DNA from: Candidatus Omnitrophota bacterium
Lineage (GTDB): Bacteria > Omnitrophota > Gorgyraeia > Gygaellales > Profunditerraquicolaceae
DNA length: 64,000 bases
Assembly (NCBI GenBank): GCA_028716965.1
Contig: JAQUOV010000001.1
Location: 70,448-134,447, forward strand
Direction: 5' to 3'
Shown piece after piece: positions 27,818 through 51,342 of this stretch. A program made the translations under genes and the position numbers. The stretch's first letter is position 1. Every line of letters begins with the position of its first letter. The notes beneath the pieces are model-generated. The model did no database searches. It was not told where the DNA came from and saw nothing but the letters and a program-made list of their open reading frames with translations.

Positions 27818-28633
27818 TTATTTTATTAATCTGGTTGCGGCTTGCTTTAAAATCTGTCTGGAGCCCATGTTAATAAATTTCAAATAAAAAGAAAAATATG
27901 TGGCAATAAGTATGCCCTTGGGGACAAAAGGCGCAAATTCATCTATCACAGCCTTGGTGCACCTAAATATTTTAAAAAGTCCACCGGAGAGATTATTCCC
28001 GTGCAGCACATAAATTGCTAACGGCTCATCAATAAAACCTATTTTATGTTTTCTGGCAATAGATAGCCATAATATATAATCTTCAACGGTAATAAACCTT
28101 TTATCTTCGGGGAAAAAATATTGTTCGGAGTTTTTTTGATTCACCATCATAACTGTAAGGCATGCGATAAAATTGAGCTCAAGGTAGAGCCGGTTAAAGA
28201 CATTGCCCGCATTCGCTTTCTGAGGGGTTATTCCGGAGATCTTCCCATTTGTCTTTATAAAACATTTTGAATAAACAAGAAAATAATCATTATTATTCTC
28301 TAGGAAATCTACCCCCAGCTTAAGTTTATCCGGTAACCACAGGTCATCACTGTCTAAAAAAGCAAGGTATTTACCTAAGGCATTTCTTATGCCTATATTC
28401 CTTGGTCTTGCGGGGCCACCAGAATTATAATCAGACTCAATAAGTCGGATTCGACTATCTTGTTGGATAATCTCCTTTAGCACATCCCGGCTTCTGTCTG
28501 TTGAACGATTATCAACAACTAACATTTCCCAATTCTGGTATGTCTGCGCCTGAACAGAACGAATAGTCTCCCGTACAGTATTCTCGGCATTAAACATGGG
28601 AATAATTACTGAAACTAACGGATTATTTGCCAT
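27818..28633 (-). CDS. Family 2 glycosyltransferase
   Basis: VSVIIPMFNAENTVRETIRSVQAQTY, WEMLVVDNRSTDRS and LDSDD. Start trimmed to the ATG at 28633 (MANNPLVSVIIP); the longer track ORF would overlap the upstream SDR gene by 134 nt. Confidence 0.85.
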   Translation of the reverse strand: MANNPLVSVIIPMFNAENTVRETIRSVQAQTYQNWEMLVVDNRSTDRSRDVLKEIIQQDSRIRLIESDYNSGGPARPRNIGIRNALGKYLAFLDSDDLWLPDKLKLGVDFLENNNDYFLVYSKCFIKTNGKISGITPQKANAGNVFNRLYLELNFIACLTVMMVNQKNSEQYFFPEDKRFITVEDYILWLSIARKHKIGFIDEPLAIYVLHGNNLSGGLFKIFRCTKAVIDEFAPFVPKGILIATYFSFYLKFINMGSRQILKQAATRLIK

Positions 28634-29597
28634 TTTTAAAGTATTTTTTGCAGAATCGCAAAGTAGCATCAATTTCTTCGTTAAAATTGGATAGCAGGGA
28701 AAAACCGGTTGCCTTAAGCTTGTCTGACCGATAATCAAGCTTCTGCATAACTTCATTCTTCTGTGCTTGTTGCCGCTTAATAGGAGGAATAAAACCTAAA
28801 ATCTCTTTACACCTCCCAGCAATAATCTCTGCTAATTCAAAAACAGAGGTTGATTTTGCTTCCCCCACATTAAATATCCCATTACTGCATTTGTCCATAG
28901 GAATAAACAATGTATATTCTATGGCTCTAATTATATCTGTCAAAGTAATAAAATTTCTACTTTGTAGGCCTGACGAATTTAGAATAAGCTTTTGCGTAGT
29001 CACTGCTTGCCTGCACAAATCGTTTACAATGAGTTTCCACCGGTTAATAAAAGGATCCGCCGGAACACCAAATCCATTTGCAGGCCTTAAGATAATTCCA
29101 GGTAGTTTTCTTTCAAAGCCCGCGGCAACAACAAAATCTTCGGCAGCCCGGTGCGTAACTGCATAGGCGTGGCGCGGGCAAGGAACAGTTTCTTCCGTAA
29201 TTGTCCCAGAAAGCGGCGCTCCGTAAACATGTATAGTTGATAAATAGATAATCCGTTTTACCCCGGCATTCTGGGCGGCTTCAATGAGATTAAGAGTGCC
29301 AAGGGTGTTTATCAAGAAAGCCTTTTGCGGATCAGCAAAACTATCAACCTCATTTAAAGAAGCAAGATGAATTACAAAATCAACCCCCTTGCAGGCTGAA
29401 TTTAAAGTTTTCTTAGATGAAACATCTATTTTTACCACATCAAGGCTATTATCTCTGACCCAGCGCGGATAGCTCCTATCATCAGTGCTATGCGCTCCTA
29501 ATCTTAAGGAATAATCCGGATTCTTAGAAAATGCAAGCGCGGCCCTTCCGCCTAAATAGCCTAATCCACCGGTAATTAAAATTATTTTTTTTGCCAT
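28623..29597 (-). CDS. NAD-dependent epimerase/dehydratase (extended SDR)
   Basis: KIILITGGLGYLGGRAAL Rossmann motif and a YAVTHRAAE (YxxxR/K) region. Confidence 0.75.
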   Translation of the reverse strand: MAKKIILITGGLGYLGGRAALAFSKNPDYSLRLGAHSTDDRSYPRWVRDNSLDVVKIDVSSKKTLNSACKGVDFVIHLASLNEVDSFADPQKAFLINTLGTLNLIEAAQNAGVKRIIYLSTIHVYGAPLSGTITEETVPCPRHAYAVTHRAAEDFVVAAGFERKLPGIILRPANGFGVPADPFINRWKLIVNDLCRQAVTTQKLILNSSGLQSRNFITLTDIIRAIEYTLFIPMDKCSNGIFNVGEAKSTSVFELAEIIAGRCKEILGFIPPIKRQQAQKNEVMQKLDYRSDKLKATGFSLLSNFNEEIDATLRFCKKYFKNGK

Positions 29598-29603
29598 CTA
29601 CCT

Positions 29604-31130
29604 TTAGATAAAAACCCTTTCGGTATATCTTTCTAATAAATCAGATTTCAACCTATCGTTTAGGACATAATGAAAAGGAGACTTGGTTATTCTTGGTATG
29701 CTCGATATATCCCCTACCAGTTCCCGTATCTTGGGATCAGAATTGTAAATCTCATATGCTTCAGGATCAAGGCCCCCGTAAGTATTAAATGTGATATTAA
29801 AAAACAGCTGGAGCCGATTGAGAAGCTCAATCTTCTTTTCATCAATCCACGGCCGGAATTTAAGGTCAAGGTCTCCATACATGTCAGTTTTACTCCATTC
29901 TTCAAATCGGTCCGGAAATACCAGGCCATACTTTGAAATCATTATATCCGTAAGCGGCGCTCCGGGATAAGGCATATATTGATAAATAGCCATTCTAGAG
30001 GCCGGATTTATATTTTTAAAATCTTTGCATAAATTAACTGTTGCGCGAATATCTTCATCAGTCTCAAAAGGAAATCCCAAAATAAATGTATGCACCGTGG
30101 CTATTCCCATATCATAAAGGCGCTTATTCAATAATTTCATCTTTTCATAACTGGCTCTTTTATTTAATATAGCCTGAATTTTAGGGGAGCCAGTTTCCGG
30201 AGAATAAGCAACATAATCACAGAATCCGGGCAACTCTTTTATTACCCTGTCATGATAAGTATTAAAGTTGCTGCGGATTGCCGATATTTTGTAGCCTTTA
30301 CTCTTAAAAATACGTATAATCTCTACCGCCCTATCCACATCAAGTATGAAATTTTCATCAGACATCTCAAAAACGTCAAAACCGAAATTACGATTCAAAT
30401 AATCAGCTTCCTCCACAACCCGCTCAACATTAAAAGGCCTCCATGGCTTGGCTACACCAATATCGATTCCCCCTTTATAACAGTAAGTACAATTAAACGG
30501 ACAACCGCGTGAAGTAGTAAGTGTAGCAAGAATGGGATATTGCGCAGGATTTAAGTGTTCTGCAAAATGATGCCAAGCCGGCATAGGCAAGACGTTTAGC
30601 GAATCAAGCTGTGCATGCGCGGGCGTCTTTACAATCTTGTCGTTATTTTTAAAATACAGACCGTGGACACTATCCAGCGGCTTATTCCCGGCAATCGCTT
30701 TAGCTAATTCTACCACCGTATAGTCAGCCTCCCCGTAAACAATAATATCCACAAGCGGATGCAGTATCGTTTTTTCCGGGAAAATTGTAGGATGCACTCC
30801 GCCCCATACCAAAGGTACATCCTTATCGTATTTGGAGCGCAACCTATTAGCGATATCAAGGCCGTCCATAATCTGTGACCCGGTCATCGTCGAAATGCCT
30901 ATAAAAAGTATTTCGTCCAGGTCAGATATTTTTTTAAGCAATTCGTCGGTCGTATTTAACCTATGGTCGAGCAGGAGCACAGGAAAACCCGCAGATTCAA
31001 GCGTGGCAGCTAAGACCATAATTGAAAGTGCCGGATAAAGCCTTTTTACTTGATGAGTATCACGCCTGCGTTCTTTAGCATAACCCTGCGTCGGCCGCGG
31101 GTATATCAGTACGATATGTTTATTTTTCAT
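29604..31130 (-). CDS. B12-binding radical SAM enzyme (class B)
   Basis: N-terminal cobalamin-binding-like domain (HIVLIYPRP...) and a radical SAM cluster TSRGCPFNCTYCYKG. Confidence 0.8.
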   Translation of the reverse strand: MKNKHIVLIYPRPTQGYAKERRRDTHQVKRLYPALSIMVLAATLESAGFPVLLLDHRLNTTDELLKKISDLDEILFIGISTMTGSQIMDGLDIANRLRSKYDKDVPLVWGGVHPTIFPEKTILHPLVDIIVYGEADYTVVELAKAIAGNKPLDSVHGLYFKNNDKIVKTPAHAQLDSLNVLPMPAWHHFAEHLNPAQYPILATLTTSRGCPFNCTYCYKGGIDIGVAKPWRPFNVERVVEEADYLNRNFGFDVFEMSDENFILDVDRAVEIIRIFKSKGYKISAIRSNFNTYHDRVIKELPGFCDYVAYSPETGSPKIQAILNKRASYEKMKLLNKRLYDMGIATVHTFILGFPFETDEDIRATVNLCKDFKNINPASRMAIYQYMPYPGAPLTDIMISKYGLVFPDRFEEWSKTDMYGDLDLKFRPWIDEKKIELLNRLQLFFNITFNTYGGLDPEAYEIYNSDPKIRELVGDISSIPRITKSPFHYVLNDRLKSDLLERYTERVFI

Positions 31131-31927
31131 GCCTTACGCTTCCATGGTAAGAATTCTTTTTCGATATCTGCGCCTTCTTTACGCAAAGACTTAATATATC
31201 CTTCATTCCTGCCGATACCCTGGTTTATAGCCGCTATTTCCGGATGGGCTTTTAAAAAATCAAGGATATCCTGCATATAAAAAACTTTATCCACGCTTTT
31301 GTATAAACCCTTATATATCTCACTGACAAATAAAAAATCTTTTTCTTCATCAACGGTCCAGCGCATATGCGAAAGATCCTCATCGCAAGCGACATTTAAC
31401 TGCCGGAATATCCGGTTATTCTTCCAGATATACGAGGTTACATATTCCCGCTCCGTTTGTTTCTTGGCCTCTTTCCAAGCCTTCTCCAGCGCCGCAAATG
31501 AAAAAATCTCCGCATCTAAACCGTCGGGATATGTGGGAGGAATACAAATAGTGCCATAATCAACGTTCCCTTTATTTTTAAGATAACAATTAATCAATTT
31601 ATCGATTACCTTAGGATCTATTAATGGGCAGTCAGCGGTAATTCTGATAATCGGATCCGCGCAAAATTTACTTGCGGCCTGATAATATCTGTCCAGCACA
31701 TCATCTTCACTGCCGGCAAAGAACTCAACACCGCACTCTTGGGCAACACCAAGAATCGGCCGGTCTATTTCTTTTATGCTGGTTGCCACAATAATTTTTT
31801 CAATTAAATGCGATTTTTTTAACCGGTTTATTAAATGCCATAACATCGGCTTACCCAGGATTTCCCGCAAAACCTTCCCGGGAAGCCGGGTTGAAGACAT
31901 TCTTGCCTGAACGATTGCTGCAATCAT
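31127..31927 (-). CDS. Cytidylyltransferase, SpsF/NeuA-like (CMP-nonulosonate/ulosonate synthetase family)
   Basis: MIAAIVQARMSSTRLPGKVLREILGKPMLWHLINR is the canonical N-terminal nucleotide-binding motif of the CTP-transferase family 3 (SpsF/KdsB/NeuA). Confidence 0.75.
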   Translation of the reverse strand: MIAAIVQARMSSTRLPGKVLREILGKPMLWHLINRLKKSHLIEKIIVATSIKEIDRPILGVAQECGVEFFAGSEDDVLDRYYQAASKFCADPIIRITADCPLIDPKVIDKLINCYLKNKGNVDYGTICIPPTYPDGLDAEIFSFAALEKAWKEAKKQTEREYVTSYIWKNNRIFRQLNVACDEDLSHMRWTVDEEKDFLFVSEIYKGLYKSVDKVFYMQDILDFLKAHPEIAAINQGIGRNEGYIKSLRKEGADIEKEFLPWKRKA

Positions 31928-31940
31928 TTTTACCCCTCTA

Positions 31941-32954
31941 TCAAATTACCATATCCAGCCTAATAATTTCATCAGGGATAATATCTCTTTTTGCCTTTCT
32001 ACCAATAATAAAATCTGTATATCCCGGATTAAGTCCAATACCCGGCCTTTTAAAACTAAGCATATCTTTAGTAATACAGCTGTTCTTAGGGATTCTTTTG
32101 CCGGCGACAATACTGCGCCGGGCGAATTTTAACGTATTTTGTTCAGTTGCTAGGGGCTCCTTAACAGTTGAGCCGAGGATTATTTCGATATGGCGCAGAT
32201 GATCTATCATGGTTTTTAATTCATCAGGCTCCAAAGAAACCGAATAATCAGGGCCCAATTTCGCACGGTCCAATGTAAAATGTTTTTCAATAACTTTAGC
32301 CCCCAACACACCAGCTATCAGCGGCGCAAGATAACCTTCTGTGTGGTCGCAAAATCCGATAATTTCATCAAAGGCAGACTGCAATGTGGCGATTACACGC
32401 AGATTGATCTCTTTTAATGGGGTAGGATAATTTGTATTGGTATGGTAAAGCACGATCTTATCGTTTCCTTCATCTCTTACTGCGTTCCTTGCTATTTCAA
32501 TTTCACCTAAAAACGCTGCCCCGGTAGAGATAAATAACGGCAGTCCGGTTTTTGCGCAATATTTAATAAACGGAGTATTAGTTATATCGCCTGAAACTAT
32601 CTTTATAAAATCAATACCAAAATCAACCATCTCATCAACGCTTTCTTCATCAATAACGCATATTCCGCAGAGAAGTTTCTTGCTTTTAGCAAAAGAAATC
32701 AACTCTTTAATTTCTTCTTTTTTTAAGACCCATTTTTTCCATTCCAGTTTTTTCGGCCCGGGCTGCTTAATATTAAGCTCACTATCAATGATATGCTGAA
32801 ACGAAATTGCATCGGCTCCTGTATGTGCAGCAGTTTCAACCATCTGTTTTGCTATTTCAAAATTTCCCGAGTGATTGACCCCTGCTTCGGCAATAATAAA
32901 AATGCTCCCTTGCTTACCGATAAACTTATTGCCAATCCTGATTTCTTTAGCCAT
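31941..32954 (-). CDS. NeuB-family nonulosonic acid synthase (sialic/legionaminic/pseudaminic-acid-synthase-like) with C-terminal SAF domain
   Basis: FIIAEAGVNHSGNFEIAKQMVETAAHTGADAISFQ (NeuB TIM-barrel N-terminus) and a C-terminal SAF-like segment. Confidence 0.85.
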   Translation of the reverse strand: MAKEIRIGNKFIGKQGSIFIIAEAGVNHSGNFEIAKQMVETAAHTGADAISFQHIIDSELNIKQPGPKKLEWKKWVLKKEEIKELISFAKSKKLLCGICVIDEESVDEMVDFGIDFIKIVSGDITNTPFIKYCAKTGLPLFISTGAAFLGEIEIARNAVRDEGNDKIVLYHTNTNYPTPLKEINLRVIATLQSAFDEIIGFCDHTEGYLAPLIAGVLGAKVIEKHFTLDRAKLGPDYSVSLEPDELKTMIDHLRHIEIILGSTVKEPLATEQNTLKFARRSIVAGKRIPKNSCITKDMLSFKRPGIGLNPGYTDFIIGRKAKRDIIPDEIIRLDMVI

Positions 32955-32972
32955 GTTTACCTCTTACGAAGT

Positions 32973-33584
32973 TTAAAACTTATTAAAATGCACTACTTTG
33001 ACAAGATCTCTTTTAGGCACATGTAGTATTCCTTTGGCATCCTTCCAGTACTTACAATCATTCCTTAATCTCTCTACTTTGGGGCTTTCAGCGGGATAGC
33101 CCAAGGCTAAGATTGAATCAATTATGAATCTCTTTGGTATATTCAAAATCATACCTAAAGCCACCCTATTAATTGAACCTATCCAGCAGGAACCCATGCC
33201 TTCTTCCGAAGCCGCCAAAATCATATTCTCCATTGCCGCTCCGACATCCCACTGGTAATTTTGTTTACTAATCTTAGTATTAACTAAAACCAGAATGTAG
33301 GCTACCGGTTGCTCCTCCTCTTTAGGCGTGCCATTTGGCGAAATATAACCTGCCCAAGCCAAAGCATTAAAAACACCCTTAAGCGTTTTTTTGTCATTAA
33401 TAACCATAAATTCCAAAGGCTGCAAGTTCGCACCTGAAGGAGCCAAACGCGCGGTATTTACCAATTTTTTCAGAATTCTTAATGGCACCCCATCCTGTTT
33501 AAATCTCCTTATGGAACGCCTGCTCAAAATGAGCTTATAAACTTGATTTTTCAACTTCGGCATAACGTTAATATGTGATTTCAT
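32973..33584 (-). CDS. Nitroreductase-family flavoprotein
   Basis: LILSRRSIRRFKQDGVPLRILKKLVNTARLAPSGANLQPLEF is the classic nitroreductase N-terminal FMN-binding motif (RRSxRxF...APSxxNxQP). Confidence 0.7.
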   Translation of the reverse strand: MKSHINVMPKLKNQVYKLILSRRSIRRFKQDGVPLRILKKLVNTARLAPSGANLQPLEFMVINDKKTLKGVFNALAWAGYISPNGTPKEEEQPVAYILVLVNTKISKQNYQWDVGAAMENMILAASEEGMGSCWIGSINRVALGMILNIPKRFIIDSILALGYPAESPKVERLRNDCKYWKDAKGILHVPKRDLVKVVHFNKF

Positions 33585-34501
33585 AATTTACGGTACCAGT
33601 TCAATGGATTCAGCCAATATTCATCGTTAACTCTTAAAGTTAAAAGTTTCCTCAAAGCAATGTCAGAGAGTTTACATTTTTTCTCTTCCTTAATCGCAAA
33701 CATAAGCTCATCCATTGTGCGTATCCCGACTAACACGGTGCTAACGCCTTTAATTGACAAACAAAATCTCAAAGCTAACCCAGTCAAATCCTCCCAACTA
33801 TCAATATTCATCGTGCTTTTTATCTTCTTAGCAGCGTTTTTCAAGAAGCTCCAATCATTATCCAAATAAGTTATTTTCTTTGTCAGCATTCCCCTAAAAT
33901 AAGCCGAACGACTTATAACCCCTGTATCATTTTTAACGGCAGCTGGCAATACTTTATCCAATATCCTCTGATCCATAATATTAAACGCAATCTGCAAACA
34001 ATCAAAAAAGCCTTTTTCCAATACGGCTAAACCATCAGCGGGCTCATAAACCGAAGCTCCGAAAAACCTGATTAATCCCTGCTTGCGCAGGTTTTTTAAG
34101 TTTTCCAATATTTCAGGTTGCCTAATTATACCGCCTGTTGCATTATGAATCTGTACAATATCAATGCATTCTCTTTTTAATCTTCTTAAGCTTTTGCCGA
34201 TAGACGCCTTAATTGATAAGGCGTCGCTTCTTTTATCAATATTTATTTTGGTTGCGATATAACAAGGTTCTAGCCCAATAGTATCCCCAAGTAATTTTTC
34301 GCTTTCTCCATAACCGGGCGCAGTATCAAAGAAATTAATTCCATTATCTAAAGCTTTATGGAGCATCTTCTTAACGGCCTGTTTCCCCGGCTTTCCATAT
34401 TCGCCGGGAGCCTTGATACCGTAATCAATACCCAGCTCTGTTGAACCAAAACCGACAACCGATACCTTTAACCCAGTTTTACCTAATATTCTATATCTCA
34501 T
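33581..34501 (-). CDS. Aldo/keto reductase
   Basis: MRYRILGKTGLKVSVVGFGSTELG, then INFFDTAPGYGESEKLLG (catalytic D/Y region). Confidence 0.8.
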   Translation of the reverse strand: MRYRILGKTGLKVSVVGFGSTELGIDYGIKAPGEYGKPGKQAVKKMLHKALDNGINFFDTAPGYGESEKLLGDTIGLEPCYIATKINIDKRSDALSIKASIGKSLRRLKRECIDIVQIHNATGGIIRQPEILENLKNLRKQGLIRFFGASVYEPADGLAVLEKGFFDCLQIAFNIMDQRILDKVLPAAVKNDTGVISRSAYFRGMLTKKITYLDNDWSFLKNAAKKIKSTMNIDSWEDLTGLALRFCLSIKGVSTVLVGIRTMDELMFAIKEEKKCKLSDIALRKLLTLRVNDEYWLNPLNWYRKL

Positions 34502-34593: not shown

Positions 34594-36426
34594 TCAATTG
34601 CCTAAAAAAGGCTCAAGCGTTTCTTCAGAAACCGGTGTAAAATATAAGTCACGTATACGCAGTGATTCGGCTTTAAAACGCGAGCGTTCGGACAAAGACA
34701 GCGAATAGTAATATGTTAACGCCAAAGCAAGCTCTGAAGATGAATAACATACACGGGCAATCCCATCGGGTATAGCAACTAGCGGATTGTGGCTAAAACA
34801 ATTCTGCCTGGCCACAAAAATCACAGGCCTATTGCAAGCTAAGGCCTCAACAAGCGAGCTGGAATGTGTCCCAACCACAACCAATGCCCGGGAAAACTCC
34901 TCTTTAAGGGTCTTATCGCATAACTGCCCGGGCCATTCACCAATTTTTAAACTAAGGGAGCCCATATCCAAAAAAGGATGGCTCTTGATCCGAATCGCTA
35001 TATCCTGCACAAGTAACTTTTTCGCTTCTCGAACAAGGCTTAAGAGTTCAAGCGCCTCATCGTGGATATACGGGAGTAATACCAAAATATTCTTTTTAAT
35101 AACATCTTGATCAATATCAGGAAGATTATCAAACACATGGGCACTGCGTAGAGCAGCGCAAGGCAAGCATCTAAACCCATCGCTAAATGCCTTTGCCATT
35201 TCGCATTGTAATTTGCTGACACACAAAACTGTGTCCGGTACAACCCTGAATCTGACTTCTGTTTTAGTGGGAAAATGATTTAAGAAATTCAGCGAATGCA
35301 TAAACATCTGAACACCAATAAGTTTGGCTTTAGGGAATGCTTCCCGCGCTCCAAAAATAAAAGCCCGGTCAATTACCTGATTTTCGTACCAATCTAGAAT
35401 AATCTCCGGCGAAGGTTGATTTTGCTTAAACCTCATAAAAAAACGATAAATAAGCACTGCATACATAGGACCGGAAAAAAGCGCAAATCTTCGTTCCTCT
35501 TTTATTAATGGAGTAATATCTATCCCTAAAAAAGGCATAGTTTTAATACCCCTGCCAAAGAATCTTAACGGATAAAGAATAATACTGGCATAATCCCTAA
35601 AGCGCAAATAATCCTCAGGCAAGACAAACTGATAGTTGCTTTTACGCATCTGCTTATAAAGCGAATAAAAATTCATCTGGGCAATATCCAAAACAGGGTG
35701 AATCATAATACTATAACTTTTGGACTCTAAAAACTGGTACAAACCCGGATAATAAGGATCATAAAATGAATTACTATCTTGGAATGAATTGGCATGGATG
35801 AATGTATCGATAAGTATGCGTGGATGCCCTAAAATGGTTTTTTTCTGCTGTCCGTGCGCCCTAGTGAATGAAGCTGCCATAAGGCGGGATAGTAATTGAC
35901 AGATAAAAAAACAATAATTATGTAAGCTACTTAAGCTTCTTTTTATTGTCTTACCTATAAAGAAATGCCTGTAAAGAATTACTTTAACTCTTTCTTGCCT
36001 TAACCAAGCTGCCAAAACATTCGCCAATCCTTCAGAATCAACAAAAATTATAGTAGGCAACTCTAAAGAATTTTGACTAAAAATTCCCCTAATTATCTCA
36101 ACATAACAACAATTTTGAAAGAGATCGCTTTCGTATACATTTCTGCAAGAAACAGATTCAAACCACCATTCTTTATTGGTGCCCCGTAAATCGTTTAATT
36201 CATCCAGCCAATCAATGAACGGTTTACGAATTCGTTCAGCAACAATATTATGCAGTTTACCGACTATTATTTGCCTAAAATGGCTCGGCAGTTTATTTTC
36301 AAGGGGATTAACGGCTGAAAAATCTTTACCAAGATAAAGCCAGTTTATTGATTGACCGCGGTTCTTAAATCTTTTTACCGCGTAAGCATAATAACTAACT
36401 GGCAAGATTAATACTGAAGCGCTCAT
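34594..36426 (-). CDS. Large (610 aa) uncharacterized protein, possible GT-B-like transferase
   Basis: No canonical motif. The C-terminal VVVGTHSSSLVEALACNRPVIFV loosely resembles the donor-binding region of GT-B / glycerophosphotransferase folds. Confidence 0.3.
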   Translation of the reverse strand: MSASVLILPVSYYAYAVKRFKNRGQSINWLYLGKDFSAVNPLENKLPSHFRQIIVGKLHNIVAERIRKPFIDWLDELNDLRGTNKEWWFESVSCRNVYESDLFQNCCYVEIIRGIFSQNSLELPTIIFVDSEGLANVLAAWLRQERVKVILYRHFFIGKTIKRSLSSLHNYCFFICQLLSRLMAASFTRAHGQQKKTILGHPRILIDTFIHANSFQDSNSFYDPYYPGLYQFLESKSYSIMIHPVLDIAQMNFYSLYKQMRKSNYQFVLPEDYLRFRDYASIILYPLRFFGRGIKTMPFLGIDITPLIKEERRFALFSGPMYAVLIYRFFMRFKQNQPSPEIILDWYENQVIDRAFIFGAREAFPKAKLIGVQMFMHSLNFLNHFPTKTEVRFRVVPDTVLCVSKLQCEMAKAFSDGFRCLPCAALRSAHVFDNLPDIDQDVIKKNILVLLPYIHDEALELLSLVREAKKLLVQDIAIRIKSHPFLDMGSLSLKIGEWPGQLCDKTLKEEFSRALVVVGTHSSSLVEALACNRPVIFVARQNCFSHNPLVAIPDGIARVCYSSSELALALTYYYSLSLSERSRFKAESLRIRDLYFTPVSEETLEPFLGN

Positions 36427-37469
36427 AAAAACATGTTCTTTCTATTTAACCCATCTACAAAAAAACTTTTGATCAAATGGCGATTTTTAATTTTCAGCCT
36501 CTTCCTGTTCCGCAGAGGCCACGGTGTAAGATCCTTATAGAAACTATGGCATTTCTTGCATAATACAGGAGGAGACAACCGCTTCATCGAGCTGCGGATA
36601 GCCTCTGCGCGCTCCGATGCCCATATCTGACTAATACTTCCGTCTGACATTATATTACCGATCTTAAGCTCAAGATTCATATCTATACAACAGAGTGTTG
36701 CATCGCCAGTAGCGCTCACTGCCAGCATCTCAAAAGGTATTGAGCAAGGTTTCGGGATTTTAAGAATATAGTCCTTTGCCGCATGCAATACATTCTCTGC
36801 TGGAACCTGGCCTGCCCAGTCAATGCTGTCCACCGTCACCAGGCTGGTATTCTTAAATTTCTCAACAAATTGAAAACTTTCATAAAATTTATCAGTTGAA
36901 TCCTGATTTACCATGTTCTTTATAATGCCCACATGAACCGCTACATCAAATTTCTTCAGCCTATCCCTCTCCTCTAAAAGGAACCTAATATTATCCTTTA
37001 CTGTGGTAAATGACCCGCCGGTGCGTATTTTGGCGTAACTGTCATTAGAAAAACCATCAGGCCAGATACCTATAGAGTCAAAACCGGGAAGTAACAATTT
37101 AGCCACCACCTCCTTTTTTTCCAAAGAGACAGTAGTTGATATCCCGAAGTGAGTATTGGGAAGCTTTTGCCGAGCCCATGAAACAAAAACATCAAAATCA
37201 TTTCTCATGGTTATCTCGCCGAACATATGAAATCCTAAAAGCTTCAAATCCGGATAATCACGAGTTATGTCAACAATCACTTTCTCAAAGACTTCTTTCG
37301 GCATGTTCCCTCTTTTATTATTGGAATAAGTGCGGGGACAAAGCGGGCAACGTAAATTACATGCCCCTGTAATTTCAACAAAAACCTTTTGAGGGGGTGT
37401 AGTCTTCGGATTAAATGAATAATACTGTTGTAAACGTTTTAGTTTTGCAATCATCTGACTACTCGACAA
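36423..37469 (-). CDS. Radical SAM enzyme with C-terminal SPASM/twitch-like Cys-rich domain
   Basis: VEITGACNLRCPLCPR (CxxxCxxC) and a C-terminal CCIDMN...GNIMSDGSISQIWAS...CKKCHSF. Confidence 0.75.
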   Translation of the reverse strand: MSSSQMIAKLKRLQQYYSFNPKTTPPQKVFVEITGACNLRCPLCPRTYSNNKRGNMPKEVFEKVIVDITRDYPDLKLLGFHMFGEITMRNDFDVFVSWARQKLPNTHFGISTTVSLEKKEVVAKLLLPGFDSIGIWPDGFSNDSYAKIRTGGSFTTVKDNIRFLLEERDRLKKFDVAVHVGIIKNMVNQDSTDKFYESFQFVEKFKNTSLVTVDSIDWAGQVPAENVLHAAKDYILKIPKPCSIPFEMLAVSATGDATLCCIDMNLELKIGNIMSDGSISQIWASERAEAIRSSMKRLSPPVLCKKCHSFYKDLTPWPLRNRKRLKIKNRHLIKSFFVDGLNRKNMFL

Positions 37470-38967
37470 GATTCAATAAACCACTTTCTAAAAATTCATT
37501 TTTTAATTCATCGTAAATCTTTTGCCCTTCCGGAGTTTCAGCTTCAGCTTTTCGAATCTCCGTCCACCGGGATTCCGGGAATTTCACATACATATTAAAT
37601 GTCTTCACCAGGCCATTAACTTCTGATTGTGGAAATTGAGGCATATTCAAAAGTGAACCGCCAATAACAACTGACTGTACAATATCTTCGTAACTGATAA
37701 AACCTAAGCGCTCACATTCATCCCGTAACGGCGTACCATGAAACGGCGTAAATGGATAAGCATTACGATCCCATGATCTCACGAGCCGGTTAAACCTAAT
37801 AGTATCAAATGCAAGATCCCTGGTTTCATGAGGAAATCCTATAAGATTATTTACGCTGAAAGGAATGCCGGATTCTTCAATTAGCCTGAATTTTTCCAGC
37901 ATCGCCTGGTTGCTTATTCTACGATTGAGCACATTCTGCCTGAATTTCTCATTACCATGCTCAATACCAAATGACATCCGTGCGCAGTTGATCTTTTTTA
38001 AAGCGGCTAATCTGTCTTTGGTTATTGTTTCTACGCGTGTCTGGCACCAAAATGGTAACTTAATTTGTTGATACATTGAACAAAATTCCTCAAACTCTTC
38101 ATTAGTCCAACACAAAAATGTATCTGCCCAAAAATACAAATACTCAGCCTTCATTGTATCTTTGTAAAATAATAATTCTTTAAGGATATTTTCGTTTGTT
38201 TTTTTGCGTAAAAAAGAGCGCCCCTGTTCTTTCCGGTAAAGGATCATCTGCGCAGGAGAATTACAATACGCGCACGTATTGGGACAACCGCGGAATGTTT
38301 CAACGGGAAACATCCTATAAACCTTGCCCCCCATGGGCCGGTAAAAACGCGCTTCTTCAAAAATCGACATATCAATCAATGGATTTTTATTTATATCTAC
38401 CATCCTGAGCGGATTTTTCTTGATGGTTCCGTCTCCTTGCTTGACCCATAAATTCGTAACATCATCGTATTTCAAGCCGTTTTCCAGCCGATAACACAAC
38501 TCGACTAACGCATCCTCACCTTCACCGCGACAAATAATATCTACTTCCGGATAGCTTAATACTAAATCGGGGGCAAAAGTCGGAAAAACTCCCCCCGCAA
38601 TCGCGGGTATTTCCAGATCGCTCACCTTTGATAAAAGCTTAATCCCAAGCTTAAACATATCTTCCGTGCAGGAAAGCCCGATCAAATCCGGTTTAAAATC
38701 CAAAACGCTTGAGCGAAAATCATCAAAACAGTTTGTTGTTTTGCATGAAATCTGGCGCGGCATTTCAAACGGACGGGCCATTAATCGGTCAGATTTTGAC
38801 TTATCCGAATCCGCTTCCTTACCGTCAACCGACTTGTAGTAAGTTGTATCAAATAGCTGAACCTCATATCCTGCCCGTTTCAAAACAGCAGATAATAACC
38901 CAATAGCCGAGGGAAGCATATTCATTCCTCTTGCATTCGGATAAACAAGCATAACTTTAAACGCCAT
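37459..38967 (-). CDS. B12-binding radical SAM enzyme (class B)
   Basis: MAFKVMLVYPNARGMN...GYEVQLFD (B12 domain) and FRGCPNTCAYCNSP (CxxxCxxC). Confidence 0.8.
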   Translation of the reverse strand: MAFKVMLVYPNARGMNMLPSAIGLLSAVLKRAGYEVQLFDTTYYKSVDGKEADSDKSKSDRLMARPFEMPRQISCKTTNCFDDFRSSVLDFKPDLIGLSCTEDMFKLGIKLLSKVSDLEIPAIAGGVFPTFAPDLVLSYPEVDIICRGEGEDALVELCYRLENGLKYDDVTNLWVKQGDGTIKKNPLRMVDINKNPLIDMSIFEEARFYRPMGGKVYRMFPVETFRGCPNTCAYCNSPAQMILYRKEQGRSFLRKKTNENILKELLFYKDTMKAEYLYFWADTFLCWTNEEFEEFCSMYQQIKLPFWCQTRVETITKDRLAALKKINCARMSFGIEHGNEKFRQNVLNRRISNQAMLEKFRLIEESGIPFSVNNLIGFPHETRDLAFDTIRFNRLVRSWDRNAYPFTPFHGTPLRDECERLGFISYEDIVQSVVIGGSLLNMPQFPQSEVNGLVKTFNMYVKFPESRWTEIRKAEAETPEGQKIYDELKNEFLESGLLNLVE

Positions 38968-42122: not shown

Positions 42123-42944
42123 CTACCAATCTTTATATTTAGAAGACCAGCTGCTATCCCTGCTAAGCACCAGGCCATAAAATCCCTCATAATCGCTCTT
42201 TCTCCAGTAAGGGCGCGTAACCCTTAATAAGCCTCTCTGCGGATATTGCAGATAGATATTTTCGGTTTTAATGCGCCAACCGGAGTGCAAAATAAGTAAT
42301 TTCCAATCGTTTGGGCTCAATTCAAAGATGTGCGTATTCTCGGCATAAACGTCACTTTGTGCACAGTGCCGAATATGATGTAATCCTACCCTGCTATTCG
42401 CAAGATAAGGTACGGTCACTATTAAATACTCTGCTTTTGTGCCTAATGACAAACTCCGCAAAAAATTGCACGGATCCATTAGATGCTCTAATGTCTCAAA
42501 ACATAAGAAAATATCTGCTTTAATGTCGTAGTTTTCCAAGTTTTCAGCTTTTGCGCAAACAGCGTCCAAACCCTTAGCCTTGATCCTGGCAACCGCTTTT
42601 TCATCAAGATTCACGCTCATTGATCTTACCTTAACCTTTTGCGAATAAAGGCCTTTTATGTATTGTATGTGAGTGCCGGCAGAATCACCAATATCAACAA
42701 TTACGGCTGAATCCTGAAAATTACGCATCGCCTTATCAAGCAGAGACATTTGGAAAGCATGCATTGCCCTCACTTTTGCCTTAAGATAACCTTCCTTAAC
42801 TTCAAACAAGCTGTATTGCTGGCTTATATCAGGGACTATTCTTTCTAACTTGTCCACCAACACTTCAAGCCCCTGCTCTCTAACAGCGCACCTGATCGAT
42901 CTTGTCAGTATTGTTTGCACGGGGATTATACTGCTTATATTCAT
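42123..42944 (-). CDS. Class I SAM-dependent methyltransferase
   Basis: VVDIGDSAGTHIQYIKG (motif I-like) and LCFETLEHL (motif II/III). Confidence 0.55.
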   Translation of the reverse strand: MNISSIIPVQTILTRSIRCAVREQGLEVLVDKLERIVPDISQQYSLFEVKEGYLKAKVRAMHAFQMSLLDKAMRNFQDSAVIVDIGDSAGTHIQYIKGLYSQKVKVRSMSVNLDEKAVARIKAKGLDAVCAKAENLENYDIKADIFLCFETLEHLMDPCNFLRSLSLGTKAEYLIVTVPYLANSRVGLHHIRHCAQSDVYAENTHIFELSPNDWKLLILHSGWRIKTENIYLQYPQRGLLRVTRPYWRKSDYEGFYGLVLSRDSSWSSKYKDW

Positions 42945-42949
42945 TTTAT

Positions 42950-43723
42950 TTATCCCTGCCTGTACCTTTCAAATAATTTATCCGATGCCATCATCGCGCT
43001 CACCGTTTCCAGGTCAGCCAGGGTATCCACAGACTTGGTCTCATAATTTGTTAAGACCATCTTCACCTTTTGCCCATTCTCAAGTATTCGCATCATGTCA
43101 ACAGATTCAAATATCTCTAAAGGGGTCGGCTTCATCTTTGTATATTCCAAAAGAAATTCTTTCTTAAATGGTATTATACAAACCTGTTTGAGCATTGTAA
43201 CATTAGGAGAACCCTTTTTTCTTGAAGGTATGGGTTCTCTGGAAAAATATAACGCGTTATTAAGTTTATCCACTACTACCTTCACTTCGTTAGGATCCTC
43301 AAACTCTTTGACAGTCTTTATCCGGGCCATCAAATTCGTTATTTTAACTGCACTATCTTCCAAGAGAGGCTTCAGAGCCTCATCGATCATTTCCGGATAA
43401 GTGAGCGGCTCATCCCCCTGGATCATTACAACGATATCCACTTTCTTACCGGTCTCATTTTCTATTTTCAAAACTGCTTCGGCAGCGCGGTCCGATGCCC
43501 GCTCATGGGTGGCAGCAGTCATAACCGCCTTTGCGCCTAATGCATCCAAGTATTGTTTTATTTCTTGATCGCAGGTAGCAACATAAACCTCATTCATCAG
43601 TTTCGACATCTTGCTTCTCAGATAAACATGGCCAATCATGGGAATACCACATATTTTAGCCAGTGGTTTGCCGGGAAACCTTGAAGAAGCCATACGGCCA
43701 GGAATAATCCCGATGATATTCAT
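42950..43723 (-). CDS. KdsB/NeuA-like CMP-sugar cytidylyltransferase (CMP-ulosonate/nonulosonate synthetase)
   Basis: MNIIGIIPGRMASSRFPGKPLAKICGIPMIGHV parallels the KdsB N-terminus (IPARYASTRLPGKPL). Start trimmed to the ATG at 43723, one nt after the upstream stop; the track's 299-aa form carries a non-conserved leader. Confidence 0.75.
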   Translation of the reverse strand: MNIIGIIPGRMASSRFPGKPLAKICGIPMIGHVYLRSKMSKLMNEVYVATCDQEIKQYLDALGAKAVMTAATHERASDRAAEAVLKIENETGKKVDIVVMIQGDEPLTYPEMIDEALKPLLEDSAVKITNLMARIKTVKEFEDPNEVKVVVDKLNNALYFSREPIPSRKKGSPNVTMLKQVCIIPFKKEFLLEYTKMKPTPLEIFESVDMMRILENGQKVKMVLTNYETKSVDTLADLETVSAMMASDKLFERYRQG

Positions 43724-43724
43724 T

Positions 43725-50144: not shown

Positions 50145-50848
50145 TTAGAAGTACCTCCTTTAATAAGCTCTAATGTTTCTTTCGGCCCTACATTCATAAG
50201 CGCATCCGCAATTGAGAGGTAAGGAATAAAGCTATGAAGCGAACCAATCTGCTTATATTCTTTCGGTGTAAAACTCTGAAATATCACTTCAATATCTGCA
50301 ACAGGGAAAACTCCATCTTCCAGCATATATTCGAAAGCCCCCTTAGCAGAGAAGTACCGCTTTGCGCCACACCAATGTAAAAGCTCTAAAACTCGCTTTG
50401 AACGTTTTGATGATACGGGAAAATCCGAGCTAAGTCGGAATTCACGCTTCAAATCTAATAGACCACAAACCATCTTGATAAAAGATATGTTCATTTCCGC
50501 TAAAGAACTAAAATCTCCAAAAATCCATTCCTTTAGAGGTTTCAACATATCCTTAAAGAATGGTGCTTTTGAATAGTTTAGCTCTATCGCCTTCCACATC
50601 TTCACCCGCCATTTTGTAGCCTCGTTAATCCTTACTTCATTTAGCGGGGCCATAAATGAGGAAGTCTTTTGAACAGGCACAGTATACCATCCTATTTTTT
50701 CTTTATTCACAAAAAGACGGTTACGCTGCTGATAACTCTGCACAGAAAATTGGAAATCATCGAGAAGTATAAAAATTTCCGATCTATATATCAACTCAAA
50801 ATATCCCTGCCAAGGCGCGAAAGTAGGCTGCATCATAGCTACATCCAT
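50087..50848 (-). CDS. WbqC-family protein (conserved nonulosonate-cluster protein of unknown function)
   Basis: MMQPTFAPWQGYFELI...ILLDDFQF... is the characteristic WbqC-like N-terminus. Confidence 0.55.
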   Translation of the reverse strand: MDVAMMQPTFAPWQGYFELIYRSEIFILLDDFQFSVQSYQQRNRLFVNKEKIGWYTVPVQKTSSFMAPLNEVRINEATKWRVKMWKAIELNYSKAPFFKDMLKPLKEWIFGDFSSLAEMNISFIKMVCGLLDLKREFRLSSDFPVSSKRSKRVLELLHWCGAKRYFSAKGAFEYMLEDGVFPVADIEVIFQSFTPKEYKQIGSLHSFIPYLSIADALMNVGPKETLELIKGGTSKWLIWEDMKRRLVLNNQPS

Positions 50849-51339: not shown

Positions 51340-51342
51340 ATC

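Follow-up and report, generated by a model that had tools for sequence, protein, structure and literature searches.

The window analyzed here, a 64,000-nucleotide stretch of Omnitrophota DNA, was a surface-polysaccharide island, and the features discussed below are listed in Table 1. As the preliminary description had it, a second NeuB/SpsF pair was accompanied by a nitroreductase-fold protein and an aldo-keto reductase, and all four minus-strand open reading frames, AKR, NTR, NeuB2, and SpsF (4/4), were intact; NeuB2, in particular, was not a pseudogene. By their coordinates, AKR and NTR overlapped by 4 nt, while NTR and NeuB2 were separated by 18 nt and NeuB2 and SpsF by 13 nt; the stop codon of SpsF overlapped the start of the following radical-SAM gene by 4 nt. 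Such short gaps and stop/start overlaps point to co-translation of the cassette genes.

Table 1. Coordinates of the cassette, its neighbors, and the pse gene set in the window
Feature	Coordinates	Strand	Remarks
SDR epimerase/dehydratase	28623-29597	-	Pfam; downstream, after the radical-SAM gene
B12-binding radical-SAM enzyme (rSAM)	29604-31130	-	Pfam; immediately downstream of SpsF
SpsF-type CTP_transf_3 cytidylyltransferase (SpsF)	31127-31927	-	266 aa; PF02348, 116.5 bits
Divergent NeuB+SAF synthase paralog (NeuB2)	31941-32954	-	337 aa; PF03102, 212.7 bits, plus SAF
Nitroreductase-fold protein (NTR)	32973-33584	-	203 aa; PF00881, 93.2 bits; predicted FMN-dependent
Aldo-keto reductase (AKR)	33581-34501	-	306 aa; PF00248, 116.8 bits; first cassette gene
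610-aa protein	34594-36426	-	Upstream of AKR, 92-nt gap
KdsB-type cytidylyltransferase	42950-43849	-	Second and last CTP_transf_3 gene of the window
Pseudaminic-acid (pse) gene set	49098-57855	-	14-23 kb upstream of the cassette
PseI	49098-50144	-	TIGR03586 equivalog, 468 bits vs cutoff 340
WbqC	50087-50848	-	Pfam
GNAT/PseH-like	50839-51339	-	Pfam
rSAM-SPASM	51343-52410	-	Pfam
Methyltransferase	52426-53316	-	Pfam
PseG	53337-54353	-	NCBIfam equivalog-level
Class-III aminotransferase	54370-55704	-	Pfam
PseC	55673-56878	-	NCBIfam equivalog-level
PseB	56833-57855	-	NCBIfam equivalog-level
HisH/HisF-like amidotransferase genes for acetimidoyl groups	62422-63958

Genes flanking the cassette and the second cytidylyltransferase

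The rSAM plus SDR pair located 3' of SpsF was also present in the related locus L001 (81% and 69% identity, respectively) and was not found behind SpsF in L002, L004, L126, and L214; this pair is lineage-specific. The 610-aa protein on the other side of the cassette gave no match in Pfam and NCBIfam, shared 20% identity with its 572-aa counterpart in L001, and gave a single-sequence AlphaFold model too poor for use (pLDDT of 33); it is possibly a glycan transferase.

The other NeuB-family synthase named in the preliminary description was confirmed at equivalog level as PseI, the last gene of the pse set with which the cassette most likely works. Of the two or three cytidylyltransferases proposed there, two stood and the third did not: phmmer, run over every ORF of the window, returned exactly two CTP_transf_3 genes. 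The one outside the cassette exceeded the curated kdsB cutoffs (TIGR00466, 163.6 vs 155.2; NF009905, 306.5 vs 255), and its assignment as PseF was rejected (44.8 vs cutoff 205.7); the window thus contained no canonical PseF. SpsF was predicted to be a CMP-nonulosonate synthetase and was the sole NulO-type CMP-transferase of the window, contrary to the suggestion that each synthase had a cytidylyltransferase of its own, and it was likewise the only such enzyme in six related loci with two NeuB genes.

Sequence features of AKR, NTR, and SpsF

AKR displayed the catalytic tetrad D59/Y64/K85/H119, as read directly in the sequence, and shared 51-74% identity with the same-position AKRs of L001, L002, L004, L112, L126, and L214, against 25-32% identity with SpsF-fused AKR domains. 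Its predicted activity is the NAD(P)H-dependent keto-reduction of a nonulosonate intermediate. NTR carried an RRSIRRF motif, which we take to be of the FMN-phosphate-binding type, shared 62-79% identity with its cassette copies, and had 2R01, a protein of unknown function, as its best solved structure; its predicted role is that of a putative second redox partner. SpsF had 6OEW as its best solved structure (140 bits) and shared 44-58% identity with the SpsF domains of many fusion proteins and 31% identity with the SpsF-like gene inside the Bacillus thuringiensis pse operon. In Bacillus subtilis, the ΔspsF mutant accumulates free legionaminic acid, SpsF acting after legionaminic acid synthesis (PMC7439481).

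NeuB2 clade and active site

NeuB2 shared the NeuB TIM barrel plus SAF/AFP domain organization of NeuB, LegI, and PseI (NmNeuB 1XUZ, CjPseI 8H2C, and B. subtilis SpsE 1VLI) but scored below both curated cutoffs (NeuB, 299.6 vs 399.65; PseI, 220.8 vs 340.25). It belonged to a small NeuB clade of its own, monophyletic in 58/60 bootstraps, whose nearest relatives were of the Neu/Leg type rather than PseI. Nine residues, E23, K118, S121, S143, H204, E223, H225, D236, and R303, were invariant in 15 NeuB2 sequences down to 42% identity and aligned with NmNeuB E25, K129, S132, S154, H215, E234, H236, D247, and R314, respectively; the metal His pair, the catalytic Glu residues, and the equivalents of K129/S132/S154/D247/R314 of the canonical synthases were kept. 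Since K118, S121, S143, E23, E223, and both His residues were retained, NeuB2 would be fit for phosphoenolpyruvate condensation, and with pN of 0.16 vs pS of 0.73 between the window and L001, it looks like an active enzyme.

Unlike the canonical synthases, NeuB2 displayed (i) three clade-wide donor-pocket substitutions relative to NmNeuB, namely, K53S/T, T110C, and S213C; (ii) a 13-residue deletion shortening the S2-H4 sugar-binding loop; and (iii) a reductase neighbor in almost all cases. Thr110 and Ser213 are among the key catalytic-site residues of NmNeuB (PMC6795526). The C2 discriminator of NeuB2 was Gly, vs Phe in the Pse type, and its substrate therefore may not be the PseG product (PMC7371886). 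In L126 and L214, the NeuB-like gene found in this place of the cassette lacked the equivalents of K129 and E234, the S-T-G motif, and N-H, and these two degenerate proteins shared 64% amino-acid identity with pN of 0.24 vs pS of 0.75, i.e., purifying selection; synthase activity is thus perhaps dispensable to the cassette.

Conservation of the cassette and natural fusions

The order AKR>NTR>NeuB-like>SpsF was conserved in at least seven independent metagenomic lineages with differing flanking genes (L001, L112, L002/3, L004/5, L126/7, L214, and the window), which bore out the proposed linkage of AKR and NTR to NeuB2/SpsF. L096 and L118 displayed gene-order variants of the cassette, and NTR adjoined NeuB2 in all three orders (L096, L118, and window type). 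Seven further NeuB2 homologues (61-78% identity) came from contigs equal in length to those of NTR homologues and are thereby implied to lie on the same contigs. Of the NeuB2-type genes, 16/17 had a redox partner within 3 kb, counting AKR, NTR, SDR, and a 250-aa protein as such, vs 9/101 other NeuB genes (Fisher p = 1.4e-12); for AKR by itself, the figures were 9/17 vs 3/101.

The pair had initially been described as lacking dehydratase and aminotransferase partners; in related loci, however, the cassette usually came straight after PseB/PseC (L002, L126, and L214), as did NeuB2 in eight type-B loci, and in L214 it was inserted between PseC and the class-III aminotransferase within one operon, each pse gene of which was 52-68% identical to its window counterpart. 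This placement after PseB/PseC and inside the L214 pse set argues that the cassette uses the pse enzymes and is no independent pathway. Essentially every locus with enough flank harbored a second NeuB (PseI-like or Neu/Leg-like). Ordinary PseI together with SpsF, AKR, and aminotransferase, in the absence of NeuB2, was found in L212, L211, and many viral contigs, which argues for an AKR/SpsF function independent of NeuB2; the aminotransferase was located behind SpsF in L006, L007, L126, L214, L211, L212, and many viral contigs.

SpsF-type domains were naturally fused to AKR, class-III aminotransferase, Gfo/Idh/MocA, GNAT, and NeuB2. Dozens of AKR-SpsF fusions occurred in both domain orders, and SpsF-aminotransferase fusions were numerous; there were also SpsF-Gfo/Idh/MocA fusions (P0289, P0301, and P0329), SpsF-GNAT-AKR and SpsF-GNAT-aminotransferase fusions, and a triple SpsF-AKR-aminotransferase fusion (P0318). 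One NeuB2-SAF-CTP_transf_3 fusion (P0381) was identified; NeuB2 and SpsF do form a pair.

Comparison with known systems

The preliminary description placed AKR and NTR outside any canonical nonulosonate pathway, whereas EpaA (CTP_transf_3+AKR) and EpaB (SDR) from Acinetobacter baumannii prophages make 8-epi-pseudaminic acid, converting Pse5Ac7Ac to 8ePse5Ac7Ac (PMC12053666). EpaA/EpaB and the cassette each combined a CTP_transf_3 cytidylyltransferase, an AKR, and a second oxidoreductase, and each was a mobile add-on built on a complete Pse pathway; SpsF-AKR fusions of the EpaA architecture shared 44-50% identity with the window SpsF and 25-32% with the window AKR, EpaA itself being likened by description. 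The two systems differed in that (i) the domains were fused in EpaA, while AKR and SpsF were separate genes with two genes between them in the cassette; (ii) the second redox partner was the adh_short_C2 SDR EpaB in one and an FMN nitroreductase-fold protein in the other; and (iii) EpaAB had no NeuB, while the cassette included a dedicated NeuB paralog.

ElaABC, composed of CMP-transferase, oxidase, and reductase, epimerizes legionaminic acid at C8 (PMC13656337) and resembled the cassette in logic as a discrete horizontally transferred module with CMP-transferase, oxidizing dehydrogenase, and face-selective ketoreductase; the same logic was attached to SpsF-type enzymes in the SpsF-Gfo/Idh/MocA fusions. 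ElaABC employed Gfo/Idh/MocA and SDR families on the legionaminic pathway with no extra NeuB, while the cassette employed AKR and NTR on the pseudaminic pathway. A Vibrio SpsF-AKR cluster yields a PseAc2 isomer (PMC7371886).

In the sps operon of Bacillus and the pse operon of B. thuringiensis (PMC7439481; Li et al. 2015, as cited there), the CMP-nonulosonate synthetase is of the SpsF type rather than the NeuA/PseF type, as predicted for the cassette. In B. cereus-group megaplasmids, a NeuB2-clade gene with AKR and SDR neighbors lay alongside an entire pse operon; this version differed in having SDR partners, no NTR, and a NeuB2 not adjacent to the SpsF-like gene, and no function for these Bacillus NeuB2, AKR, and SDR genes was found in the literature searched.

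Proposed function and alternative explanations

We tentatively favor the reading that the four genes are one co-translated tailoring cassette extending the Pse-type nonulosonate pathway of the island. The gene identities, the synteny, the natural fusions, and the conservation of active-site residues are observed here, and the EpaA/EpaB function and the B. subtilis spsF phenotype come from published work; each chemical step given below is inferred. PseB, PseC, the PseH-like protein, and PseG would supply a 2-acetamido-6-deoxy-L-hexose from UDP-GlcNAc, and NeuB2 would condense this aldose with phosphoenolpyruvate to a nine-carbon 3-deoxy-2-ulosonic acid, PseI making ordinary Pse alongside. AKR, which corresponds to the AKR domain of SpsF-type fusions such as EpaA but stands as a separate protein, would act with NTR in keto-reduction, or oxidation followed by reduction, on a nonulosonate side-chain carbon (C8 or C7), and SpsF would make the CMP-sugar for the transferases of the island. 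To our knowledge, no nitroreductase-fold enzymes act as alcohol oxidases, which counts against this reading, as do the ~58% identical NTR copies in unrelated housekeeping-like contexts and the identity of only 25-32% between AKR and the SpsF-fused AKR domains. The loci with AKR and SpsF but no NeuB2, the degenerate L126/L214 proteins, and the Gly at the C2 discriminator weigh the same way.

A fusaminic-acid-type branch, which we consider unlikely, would leave some PseB 4-keto product untransaminated, its keto group being reduced to hydroxyl by AKR either as hexose or after condensation as 7-keto nonulosonate; the 4-hydroxy sugar, of the 6-deoxy-L-AltNAc type, would be condensed by NeuB2, whose facial selectivity at C4 may be the opposite one, and SpsF would activate the resulting 5-acylamino-3,5,9-trideoxy-nonulosonate. 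Such a sugar and 6-deoxy-L-AltNAc are natural in Fusobacterium nucleatum 25586 (reference 13 in PMC5595891), and no biosynthesis for it was found in the literature searched. The shortened S2-H4 loop lies in the region said to read hexose C4-C6 (PMC7371886), facial selectivity could shift with the changed donor pocket, NeuB2 co-occurs with PseB and almost always has a reductase close by, and the acetimidoyl amidotransferase genes of the island also fit; however, NeuB2 followed PseC, not PseB alone, in the eight type-B loci, the SpsF-fused AKR domains point to action at the nonulosonate stage, and NTR would be left unaccounted for. Quite unlikely is an amination branch, in which AKR, acting as a dehydrogenase, would turn the Pse-type C8 hydroxyl into a methyl ketone, from which the class-III aminotransferase of the pse set would make an amine; a GNAT would acylate this amine, the product being a 5,7,8-triamino nonulosonate, with NeuB2 and NTR as accessories. 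Class-III transaminases typically take aldehydes and methyl ketones, and there is a report of an 8-amino nonulosonate from Tenacibaculum; the fusions of SpsF with aminotransferase (including the triple one) and with GNAT, and the many loci with aminotransferase behind SpsF, are consistent with this branch. AKRs, however, are usually reductive in direction, in the window 20 kb separate the aminotransferase from the cassette, and NeuB2 and NTR are left with no real role. The outcome of EpaA/EpaB is, moreover, epimerization rather than amination (PMC12053666).

It is also rather improbable that NeuB2 is a repurposed NeuB-fold protein, with PseI as the sole synthase, acting either as a metal-dependent epimerase/aldolase on aldose or nonulosonate with C99 and C202 as acid/base or as a partner of SpsF, AKR, and NTR that binds sugar but has no catalytic activity. 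The clade-wide replacements in the donor pocket, the second NeuB in nearly all loci, the one NulO-type cytidylyltransferase per locus, and the degenerate L126/L214 proteins under purifying selection argue for it, but the window-type NeuB2 keeps its metal and catalytic residues invariant, the two Cys residues are absent from the degenerate form and a Cys/Cys mechanism is therefore not general, and the NeuB2-SpsF fusion fits synthesis and activation as consecutive steps. The preliminary description suggested that a non-aminated hexose is converted to a neutral Kdn-like deoxy-nonulosonate, or that a nitro/oxime intermediate is reduced. Family names and the cassette-to-pse distance within the window speak for these ideas, but they are highly improbable: R303, which corresponds to Arg314 of NmNeuB, the residue that binds the N-acetyl group, was invariant in the clade, related loci had the cassette amid PseB/PseC amino-sugar genes, a Pfam scan of the ORFs of 130 aa or more revealed no N-oxygenase, and the fold of the NTR family is a general one among flavoenzymes. 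Of the reductase steps envisaged there, keto-reduction by AKR is plausible. Least credible of all, and refuted as far as comparative genomics can do so, is the explanation that AKR and NTR have housekeeping functions of no relation to NeuB2/SpsF and lie next to them by chance: in other phyla, close NTR relatives (~58% identity) did occur in unrelated contexts, next to genes for Tricorn protease and TldD, but the four-gene order persisted across lineages with different flanks, and the overlapping stop/start codons, the redox-partner enrichment, and the AKR-SpsF fusions all speak against chance.

With the four genes read as a tailoring cassette of the Pse-type pathway, the expected product would be a Pse-type sugar altered in stereochemistry or redox state, e.g., an 8-epimer; a modified sugar of the bacterial sialic-acid-like kind is the probable product. 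The AKR/SpsF part is of an already known kind; what is new is the NeuB2 clade together with its NTR partner.

Organization of the cassette and its island

The four ORFs AKR (aldo-keto reductase), NTR (nitroreductase-fold protein), NeuB2 (divergent NeuB paralog) and SpsF, all named in a preliminary description of this DNA, were present and intact on the minus strand, the strand that also carried every ORF of at least 130 aa with a family assignment in the whole window. AKR and NTR overlapped by 4 nt, gaps of 18 and 13 nt separated NTR from NeuB2 and NeuB2 from SpsF, respectively, and SpsF overlapped the next gene by 4 nt; the NeuB2 protein was identical to MDD5560601.1. A scan of 27 to 40 kb displayed promoter-like sites at chance level and no convincing terminator within the cassette. 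The window genes together constitute a surface-polysaccharide island, which contained a Wzy_C protein, a PglF-like dehydratase, an initiating sugar transferase, a Wzx flippase, and many glycosyltransferases, plus equivalog-level PseB, PseC, PseG, and PseI at 49-58 kb (the pse set, for pseudaminic acid, Pse) alongside a class-III aminotransferase, a methyltransferase, an rSAM-SPASM enzyme, a GNAT protein, and WbqC.

Cassette genes and other features of the island (window positions)
Feature	Position	Strand	Profile match
AKR	33581-34501	-	PF00248, 116.8 bits
NTR (nitroreductase family)	32973-33584	-	PF00881, 93.2 bits
NeuB2 (NeuB + SAF)	31941-32954	-	PF03102, 212.7 bits (cutoff 22.1); PF08666, 39.4 bits (cutoff 21)
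SpsF-type cytidylyltransferase	31127-31927	-	CTP_transf_3, PF02348, 116.5 bits
Second CTP_transf_3 gene, KdsB-type	42950-43849		KdsB, 163.6 (cutoff 155.2); PseF, 44.8 (cutoff 205.7)
PseI	49098-50144		TIGR03586, 468.2
B12-binding radical-SAM enzymes	8555-10219; 29604-31130; 37459-38967; 59765-61177		
rSAM-SPASM enzymes	36423-37469; 51343-52410		
Proteins of 411-649 aa	34594-36426; 47343-49097; 57803-59752; 61177-62412; 18977-20287		
HisH/HisF-like pair	62422-63958		

Two or three cytidylyltransferases had been counted earlier; the window held exactly two CTP_transf_3 genes. The one outside the cassette was considered as the missing PseF and ruled out, and because it scored as KdsB, the island is without a canonical PseF. 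This KdsB-type gene lay mid-island, flanked by two methyltransferases (44717-45478 and 42123-44747 are also cited for it), with an HpcH/HpaI-type pyruvate aldolase nearby; an HpcH aldolase also stood beside the cassette in the homologous loci L002/L003. The KdsB-type gene and the aldolase could serve a route to an acyl side chain, or to a third ulosonic acid made by an aldolase.

The four B12-binding radical-SAM enzymes of the island were paralogous and, with the two rSAM-SPASM enzymes, made up a radical-SAM load unusually heavy for a glycan locus; their chemistry is probably C-methylation or similar. Neither a Pfam match nor mutual similarity was detected among the five window proteins of 411-649 aa, which are candidate novel transferases; three of them adjoined nonulosonate genes (upstream of AKR, after PseI, and before PseB), and the AlphaFold single-sequence model of the 610-aa protein upstream of AKR had a pLDDT of 33, too low for use. 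The HisH/HisF-like glutamine amidotransferase and cyclase pair lay upstream of the pse set, was also found in the flagellin glycosylation island L212, and likely makes an acetimidoyl (Am) substituent on a nonulosonate.

NeuB2 and its clade

NeuB2 scored below both equivalog cutoffs: (i) 299.6 vs 399.65 for N-acetylneuraminate synthase (TIGR03569) and (ii) 220.8 vs 340.25 for PseI (TIGR03586). Residues E23, K118, S121, S143, H204, E223, H225, D236, and R303 were invariant in the 15-sequence clade alignment and corresponded to E25, K129, S132, S154, H215, E234, H236, D247, and R314 of Neisseria meningitidis NeuB (NmNeuB), a set that covers the metal-binding His pair and catalytic or PEP-phosphate residues, all kept in NeuB2. 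Three donor-pocket residues were not kept: K53, which we take to belong to that pocket, was replaced by S51 (S/T across the clade), T110 by C99, and S213 by C202, with both cysteines invariant in the clade. T110 and S213 are key catalytic-site residues of NmNeuB (PMC6795526). The S2-H4 loop, proposed to read hexose C4-C6 (PMC7371886), was about 13 residues shorter in the clade than in NmNeuB. At the K-I-x-S-[F] position, which discriminates C2 configuration and has Phe in the PseI type (PMC7371886), NeuB2 carried KIVSGD (Gly, Neu/Leg type) and the window PseI carried KIASFE.

Sequences with the signature motifs [ST]FQH, C-V-I-D, and [FY]CDHT were monophyletic in 58 of 60 bootstraps of a neighbor-joining tree of 52 sequences, closest to the Neu/Leg-type synthases, at a distance of 0.9, with PseI much farther off at 1.46-1.56. 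The clade was rare, its signature being found in five of the 150 best 50%-identity representatives (family total 17,668 representatives), and it included cultured Bacillus cereus-group strains with the gene on megaplasmids. A genome-collection scan with the clade alignment, one of whose two search patterns was generic, matched mostly ordinary NeuB genes, and the only clade members among the matches listed were Bacillus bingmayongensis and a Gracilibacter MAG; its 80 loci were used as a control set.

Very divergent NeuB-like genes made up a third class, in which motifs like GFQxYPT and DHxDxxxx were seen. They were fused to an SpsF-type gene or placed directly before one (L011:11337-13097, L040, L041, and L063; unfused pairs in L012, L031, L032, L048, L053, and L088), and in many genomes of bacteria and archaea they had a canonical NeuB as neighbor.

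Conservation and neighborhoods of the cassette

The order AKR>NTR>NeuB2>SpsF was kept with NeuB2 homologues 61-78% identical in L001, L112, L002/L003, and L004/L005, and presumably in further loci, since the contigs of seven NeuB2 homologues matched those of seven NTR homologues exactly in length and were thus apparently the same ones; two more cassettes, L126/127 and L214, were recovered starting from NTR homologues. The flanking genes differed between loci, and therefore the four cassette genes travel as a unit. The cassette directly followed PseB/PseC in L002, L126, and L214, and in L214 it was part of a single operon: PseB>PseC>AKR>NTR>NeuB-like>SpsF>aminotransferase, continued by PseG-like>methyltransferase>rSAM-SPASM>formyltransferase>WbqC>NeuB. 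All but three L214 genes were 52-68% identical to their window counterparts, the exceptions being NeuB-like (about 30%), PseG-like (26%), and the formyltransferase in place of the window GNAT. Since this operon joins cassette and pse set, the window represents a split version of one pathway rather than a separate one. The interpretation in the preliminary description is supported in part: the gene group stands, and the separate pathway assigned to the NeuB2 pair gives way to a shared one.

In L126 (6703-7734) and L214 (4333-5388), the cassette position of NeuB2 was occupied by a degenerate NeuB-like gene 30-33% identical to window NeuB2, with N at K129, S/T at E234, and S-L-P or S-L-S in place of S-T-G; the N-H motif and both signature cysteines were absent. 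Purifying selection nevertheless acted on the gene (amino-acid identity of 64% across lineages, pN 0.24 vs pS 0.75), and its cassette neighbors were 57-68% (L214) and 44-66% (L126) identical to those of the window. The product may be a pseudoenzyme, or its NeuB fold may have been repurposed; loss of catalytic residues in a retained gene suggests that a NeuB-fold subunit, either non-catalytic or with a new catalytic role, would work with SpsF.

NeuB2-type genes occurred in three neighborhoods: (i) type A, AKR>NTR>NeuB2>SpsF, with order variants in L096 and L118; (ii) type B, PseB>PseC>NeuB2>[250-aa protein of no known family]>AKR>SpsF(>aminotransferase); and (iii) type C in Firmicutes, PseG>SDR>NeuB2(>SDR), with AKR nearby in Bacillus. 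A redox partner (AKR, NTR, SDR, or the 250-aa protein) lay within 3 kb of 16 of 17 NeuB2-type genes vs 9 of 101 other NeuB genes (Fisher p = 1.4e-12), the latter positives including the second NeuB of the same loci; the counts were 9/17 vs 3/101 for AKR alone and 5/17 vs 3/101 for NTR alone.

The protein of about 250 aa (L006:9019-9798, L007:9017-9772, L008:9002-9754, L091:1447-2220(-), L099:1151-1909, and L117:3803-4570) was 53-78% identical to the L006 copy, had invariant ESKRLIAK, IIPxGLEK, and AGGxGGAEG, and always stood between NeuB2 and AKR or SpsF, at the place of NTR in window-type loci; no Pfam, NCBIfam, or PDB profile match and no window homologue was found for it. Plasmid pBT1850636 of B. 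thuringiensis Bt185 (L213; NZ_CP014283.1, 143123-149636) carried the NeuB2-clade gene WP_061884912.1 plus an SDR, a divergent AKR and SDR pair, and a following TagF-like gene, beside a complete Pen/Pal-type pse operon; the setting was that of B. cereus-group megaplasmids. A fusion of an RmlD-like SDR to PseC (701-708 aa; L002:2918-5044 and L126:2926-5031; 164.8 bits to the dTDP-4-dehydrorhamnose-reductase model, 494 bits to PseC) lay directly upstream of AKR in L126 or of the aminotransferase preceding AKR in L002, and could provide a branch point with 4-ketoreductase activity, or else a second dehydratase step of the Pal-like kind.

SpsF as the predicted activating partner

Window SpsF was 44-58% identical to proteins named SpsF by JGI and 31% identical (E = 8e-32) to the SpsF-like gene product encoded between pseC and pseG of B. 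thuringiensis, and it scored below the equivalog cutoffs for PseF (36.5 vs 205.7) and kdsB (47.7 vs 155.2). By analogy with B. subtilis ΔspsF, which accumulates free legionaminic acid (PMC7439481), and with the N-terminal domain of EpaA (PMC12053666), it is a predicted CMP-nonulosonate synthetase.

A search with window SpsF and AKR joined end to end recovered dozens of proteins with SpsF-type domains (44-58% identical to the window's) fused to AKR, in both domain orders, dozens fused to class-III aminotransferase, and one (P0318) with all three; Gfo/Idh/MocA, GNAT, methyltransferase, rSAM-SPASM, and GT2 were further partners, as were UDP-glucose dehydrogenase, NeuB+GNAT, and a second SpsF (P0241-P0360; e.g., P0318, P0289, P0337, and P0334). 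This wide range suggests that much nonulosonate tailoring takes place at or next to the CMP-activation step, and tailoring enzymes appear to attach to SpsF. In a separate protein, P0381, the NeuB2 signature and a CTP_transf_3 domain were combined. SpsF was the only CTP_transf_3 gene in six related loci, four of which had two NeuB genes.

SpsF-type genes were also encoded by 80 IMG/VR viral contigs (L131-L210). Their commonest arrangement was SpsF>class-III aminotransferase>PseB>PseC-like>PseI, and eight of the contigs had SpsF-AKR fusions. Genes that make and tailor nonulosonates thus seem frequent in phage or prophage sequence, well beyond Acinetobacter EpaAB. Because of the fusions, the six loci with a sole CTP_transf_3 gene, and the viral arrangement, SpsF would by analogy be the nonulosonate activator of a widespread non-canonical Pse-type pathway.

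AKR and NTR

AKR contained the catalytic tetrad D59 (FFDTA), Y64 (PGYG), K85 (ATKI), and H119 (QIHN). NTR had 94 bits to structure 2R01 and carried RRSIRRF at residues 22-28, which would be of the Arg-rich FMN-phosphate-binding type. The NTR family was large, with proteins of about 191 aa, and relatives about 58% identical had Tricorn-protease and TldD genes as neighbors in other phyla; a general flavoenzyme family is therefore where NTR was recruited from. Non-homologous proteins replaced it in type B and type C loci. A role of NTR as reductase for the neighboring B12-radical-SAM enzymes was rejected: NTR was kept with NeuB2 in L002, L004, and L126, with no radical-SAM gene adjoining. Literature searches returned nothing relevant linking a nitroreductase to pseudaminic acid, and nothing relevant on pseudaminic acid in Omnitrophota.

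Comparison with characterized systems

Prophages of A. baumannii encode EpaA (SBS22546.1; CTP_transf_3 plus AKR, 542 aa) and EpaB (adh_short_C2 SDR), which convert Pse5Ac7Ac to its 8-epimer, as shown by complementation and NMR (PMC12053666); ElaABC (CMP-transferase, Gfo/Idh/MocA oxidase, and SDR reductase) epimerise C8 of CMP-legionaminic acid (PMC13656337), and a Vibrio cluster that pairs an SpsF-AKR fusion with a dehydrogenase yields an isomer of PseAc2 (PMC7371886). These cases and that of B. subtilis SpsF make the earlier placement of AKR outside any canonical nonulosonate pathway outdated. Like EpaA/EpaB, the cassette stood alongside a complete Pse pathway, and in L214 it was embedded in the pse set. 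Unlike in EpaA, CTP_transf_3 and AKR were separate genes with NTR and NeuB2 between them, and the second redox protein was a PF00881 nitroreductase, not an adh_short_C2 SDR as in EpaB; SDR partners were present in Firmicutes-type NeuB2 loci. In domain architecture, AKR and SpsF of the cassette correspond to a split version of the EpaA-type arrangement already known, and EpaA-type systems already explain the AKR/SpsF pairing. A tblastn of window AKR and SpsF against phage records matched generic AKRs only.

Proposed function

The reading adopted here, which comes close to even chances, is that the cassette is a tailoring unit of the Pse branch, with every chemical step deduced. NeuB2 would condense PEP with a PseB/PseC-derived 6-deoxy-hexosamine, AKR and the flavoenzyme NTR would act on C8 or C7 of the side chain, where a carbonyl or hydroxyl group would be fixed or inverted, and SpsF would form the CMP-sugar last. 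SpsF, AKR, and aminotransferase occurred with an ordinary PseI and without NeuB2 in L212 and L211, and thus NeuB2 is an extra.

A fusaminic-acid-type 7-hydroxy branch is improbable; the shortened loop of NeuB2 would speak for it, and the position of NeuB2 after PseC, not after PseB alone, against it. Slightly less credit goes to oxidation and transamination to a triamino sugar via the class-III aminotransferase, a frequent fusion partner of SpsF and a variable member of type B loci. The same low standing applies to a non-synthase role of NeuB2, which the degenerate gene of L126 and L214 would fit and which is to be set beside the metal-binding and catalytic or PEP-phosphate residues kept in NeuB2 itself. 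The Kdn-like product or reduced nitro/oxime intermediate proposed in the preliminary description is very improbable for a cassette found inside a pse operon. Coincidental housekeeping roles of AKR and NTR, compatible with the NTR relatives in unrelated contexts, are scarcely credible given the enrichment of redox partners beside NeuB2-type genes.

Beside the Pse-branch tailoring unit, a broader joint reading is possible though doubtful: the NeuB2 clade would be an unrecognised functional class of the NeuB fold, marked by the donor-pocket changes K53S/T, T110C, and S213C, the shortened sugar-tail loop, and obligatory reductase pairing, and would with NTR and AKR make an orphan bacterial nonulosonate, e.g., a fusaminic-acid-type 7-hydroxy/4-epi sugar or another stereoisomer.

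Implications

Nonulosonic acids are found as decorations on the LPS, capsules, and flagella of numerous bacteria and influence how these are recognized by immune systems and phages. The literature search found no published description of the NeuB2 clade or of its remodelled active site, obligatory redox partners, and nitroreductase-fold partner, and no assigned biosynthetic genes for fusaminic acid, 4-epi-legionaminic acid, or the PseAc2 isomer of Vibrio sp. B9-25K2. The combination of a NeuB2-clade synthase, a reductase partner, and an SpsF-type activator recurred from Omnitrophota to Bacillus cereus-group megaplasmids, and this gene signature is a direct handle for assigning genes to orphan nonulosonate isomers. 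It would improve cluster-based structure prediction, in which any NeuB homologue is currently treated as Neu, Leg, or Pse, and the Bacillus cereus-group copies offer a cultured, experimentally tractable system for the NeuB2 question.
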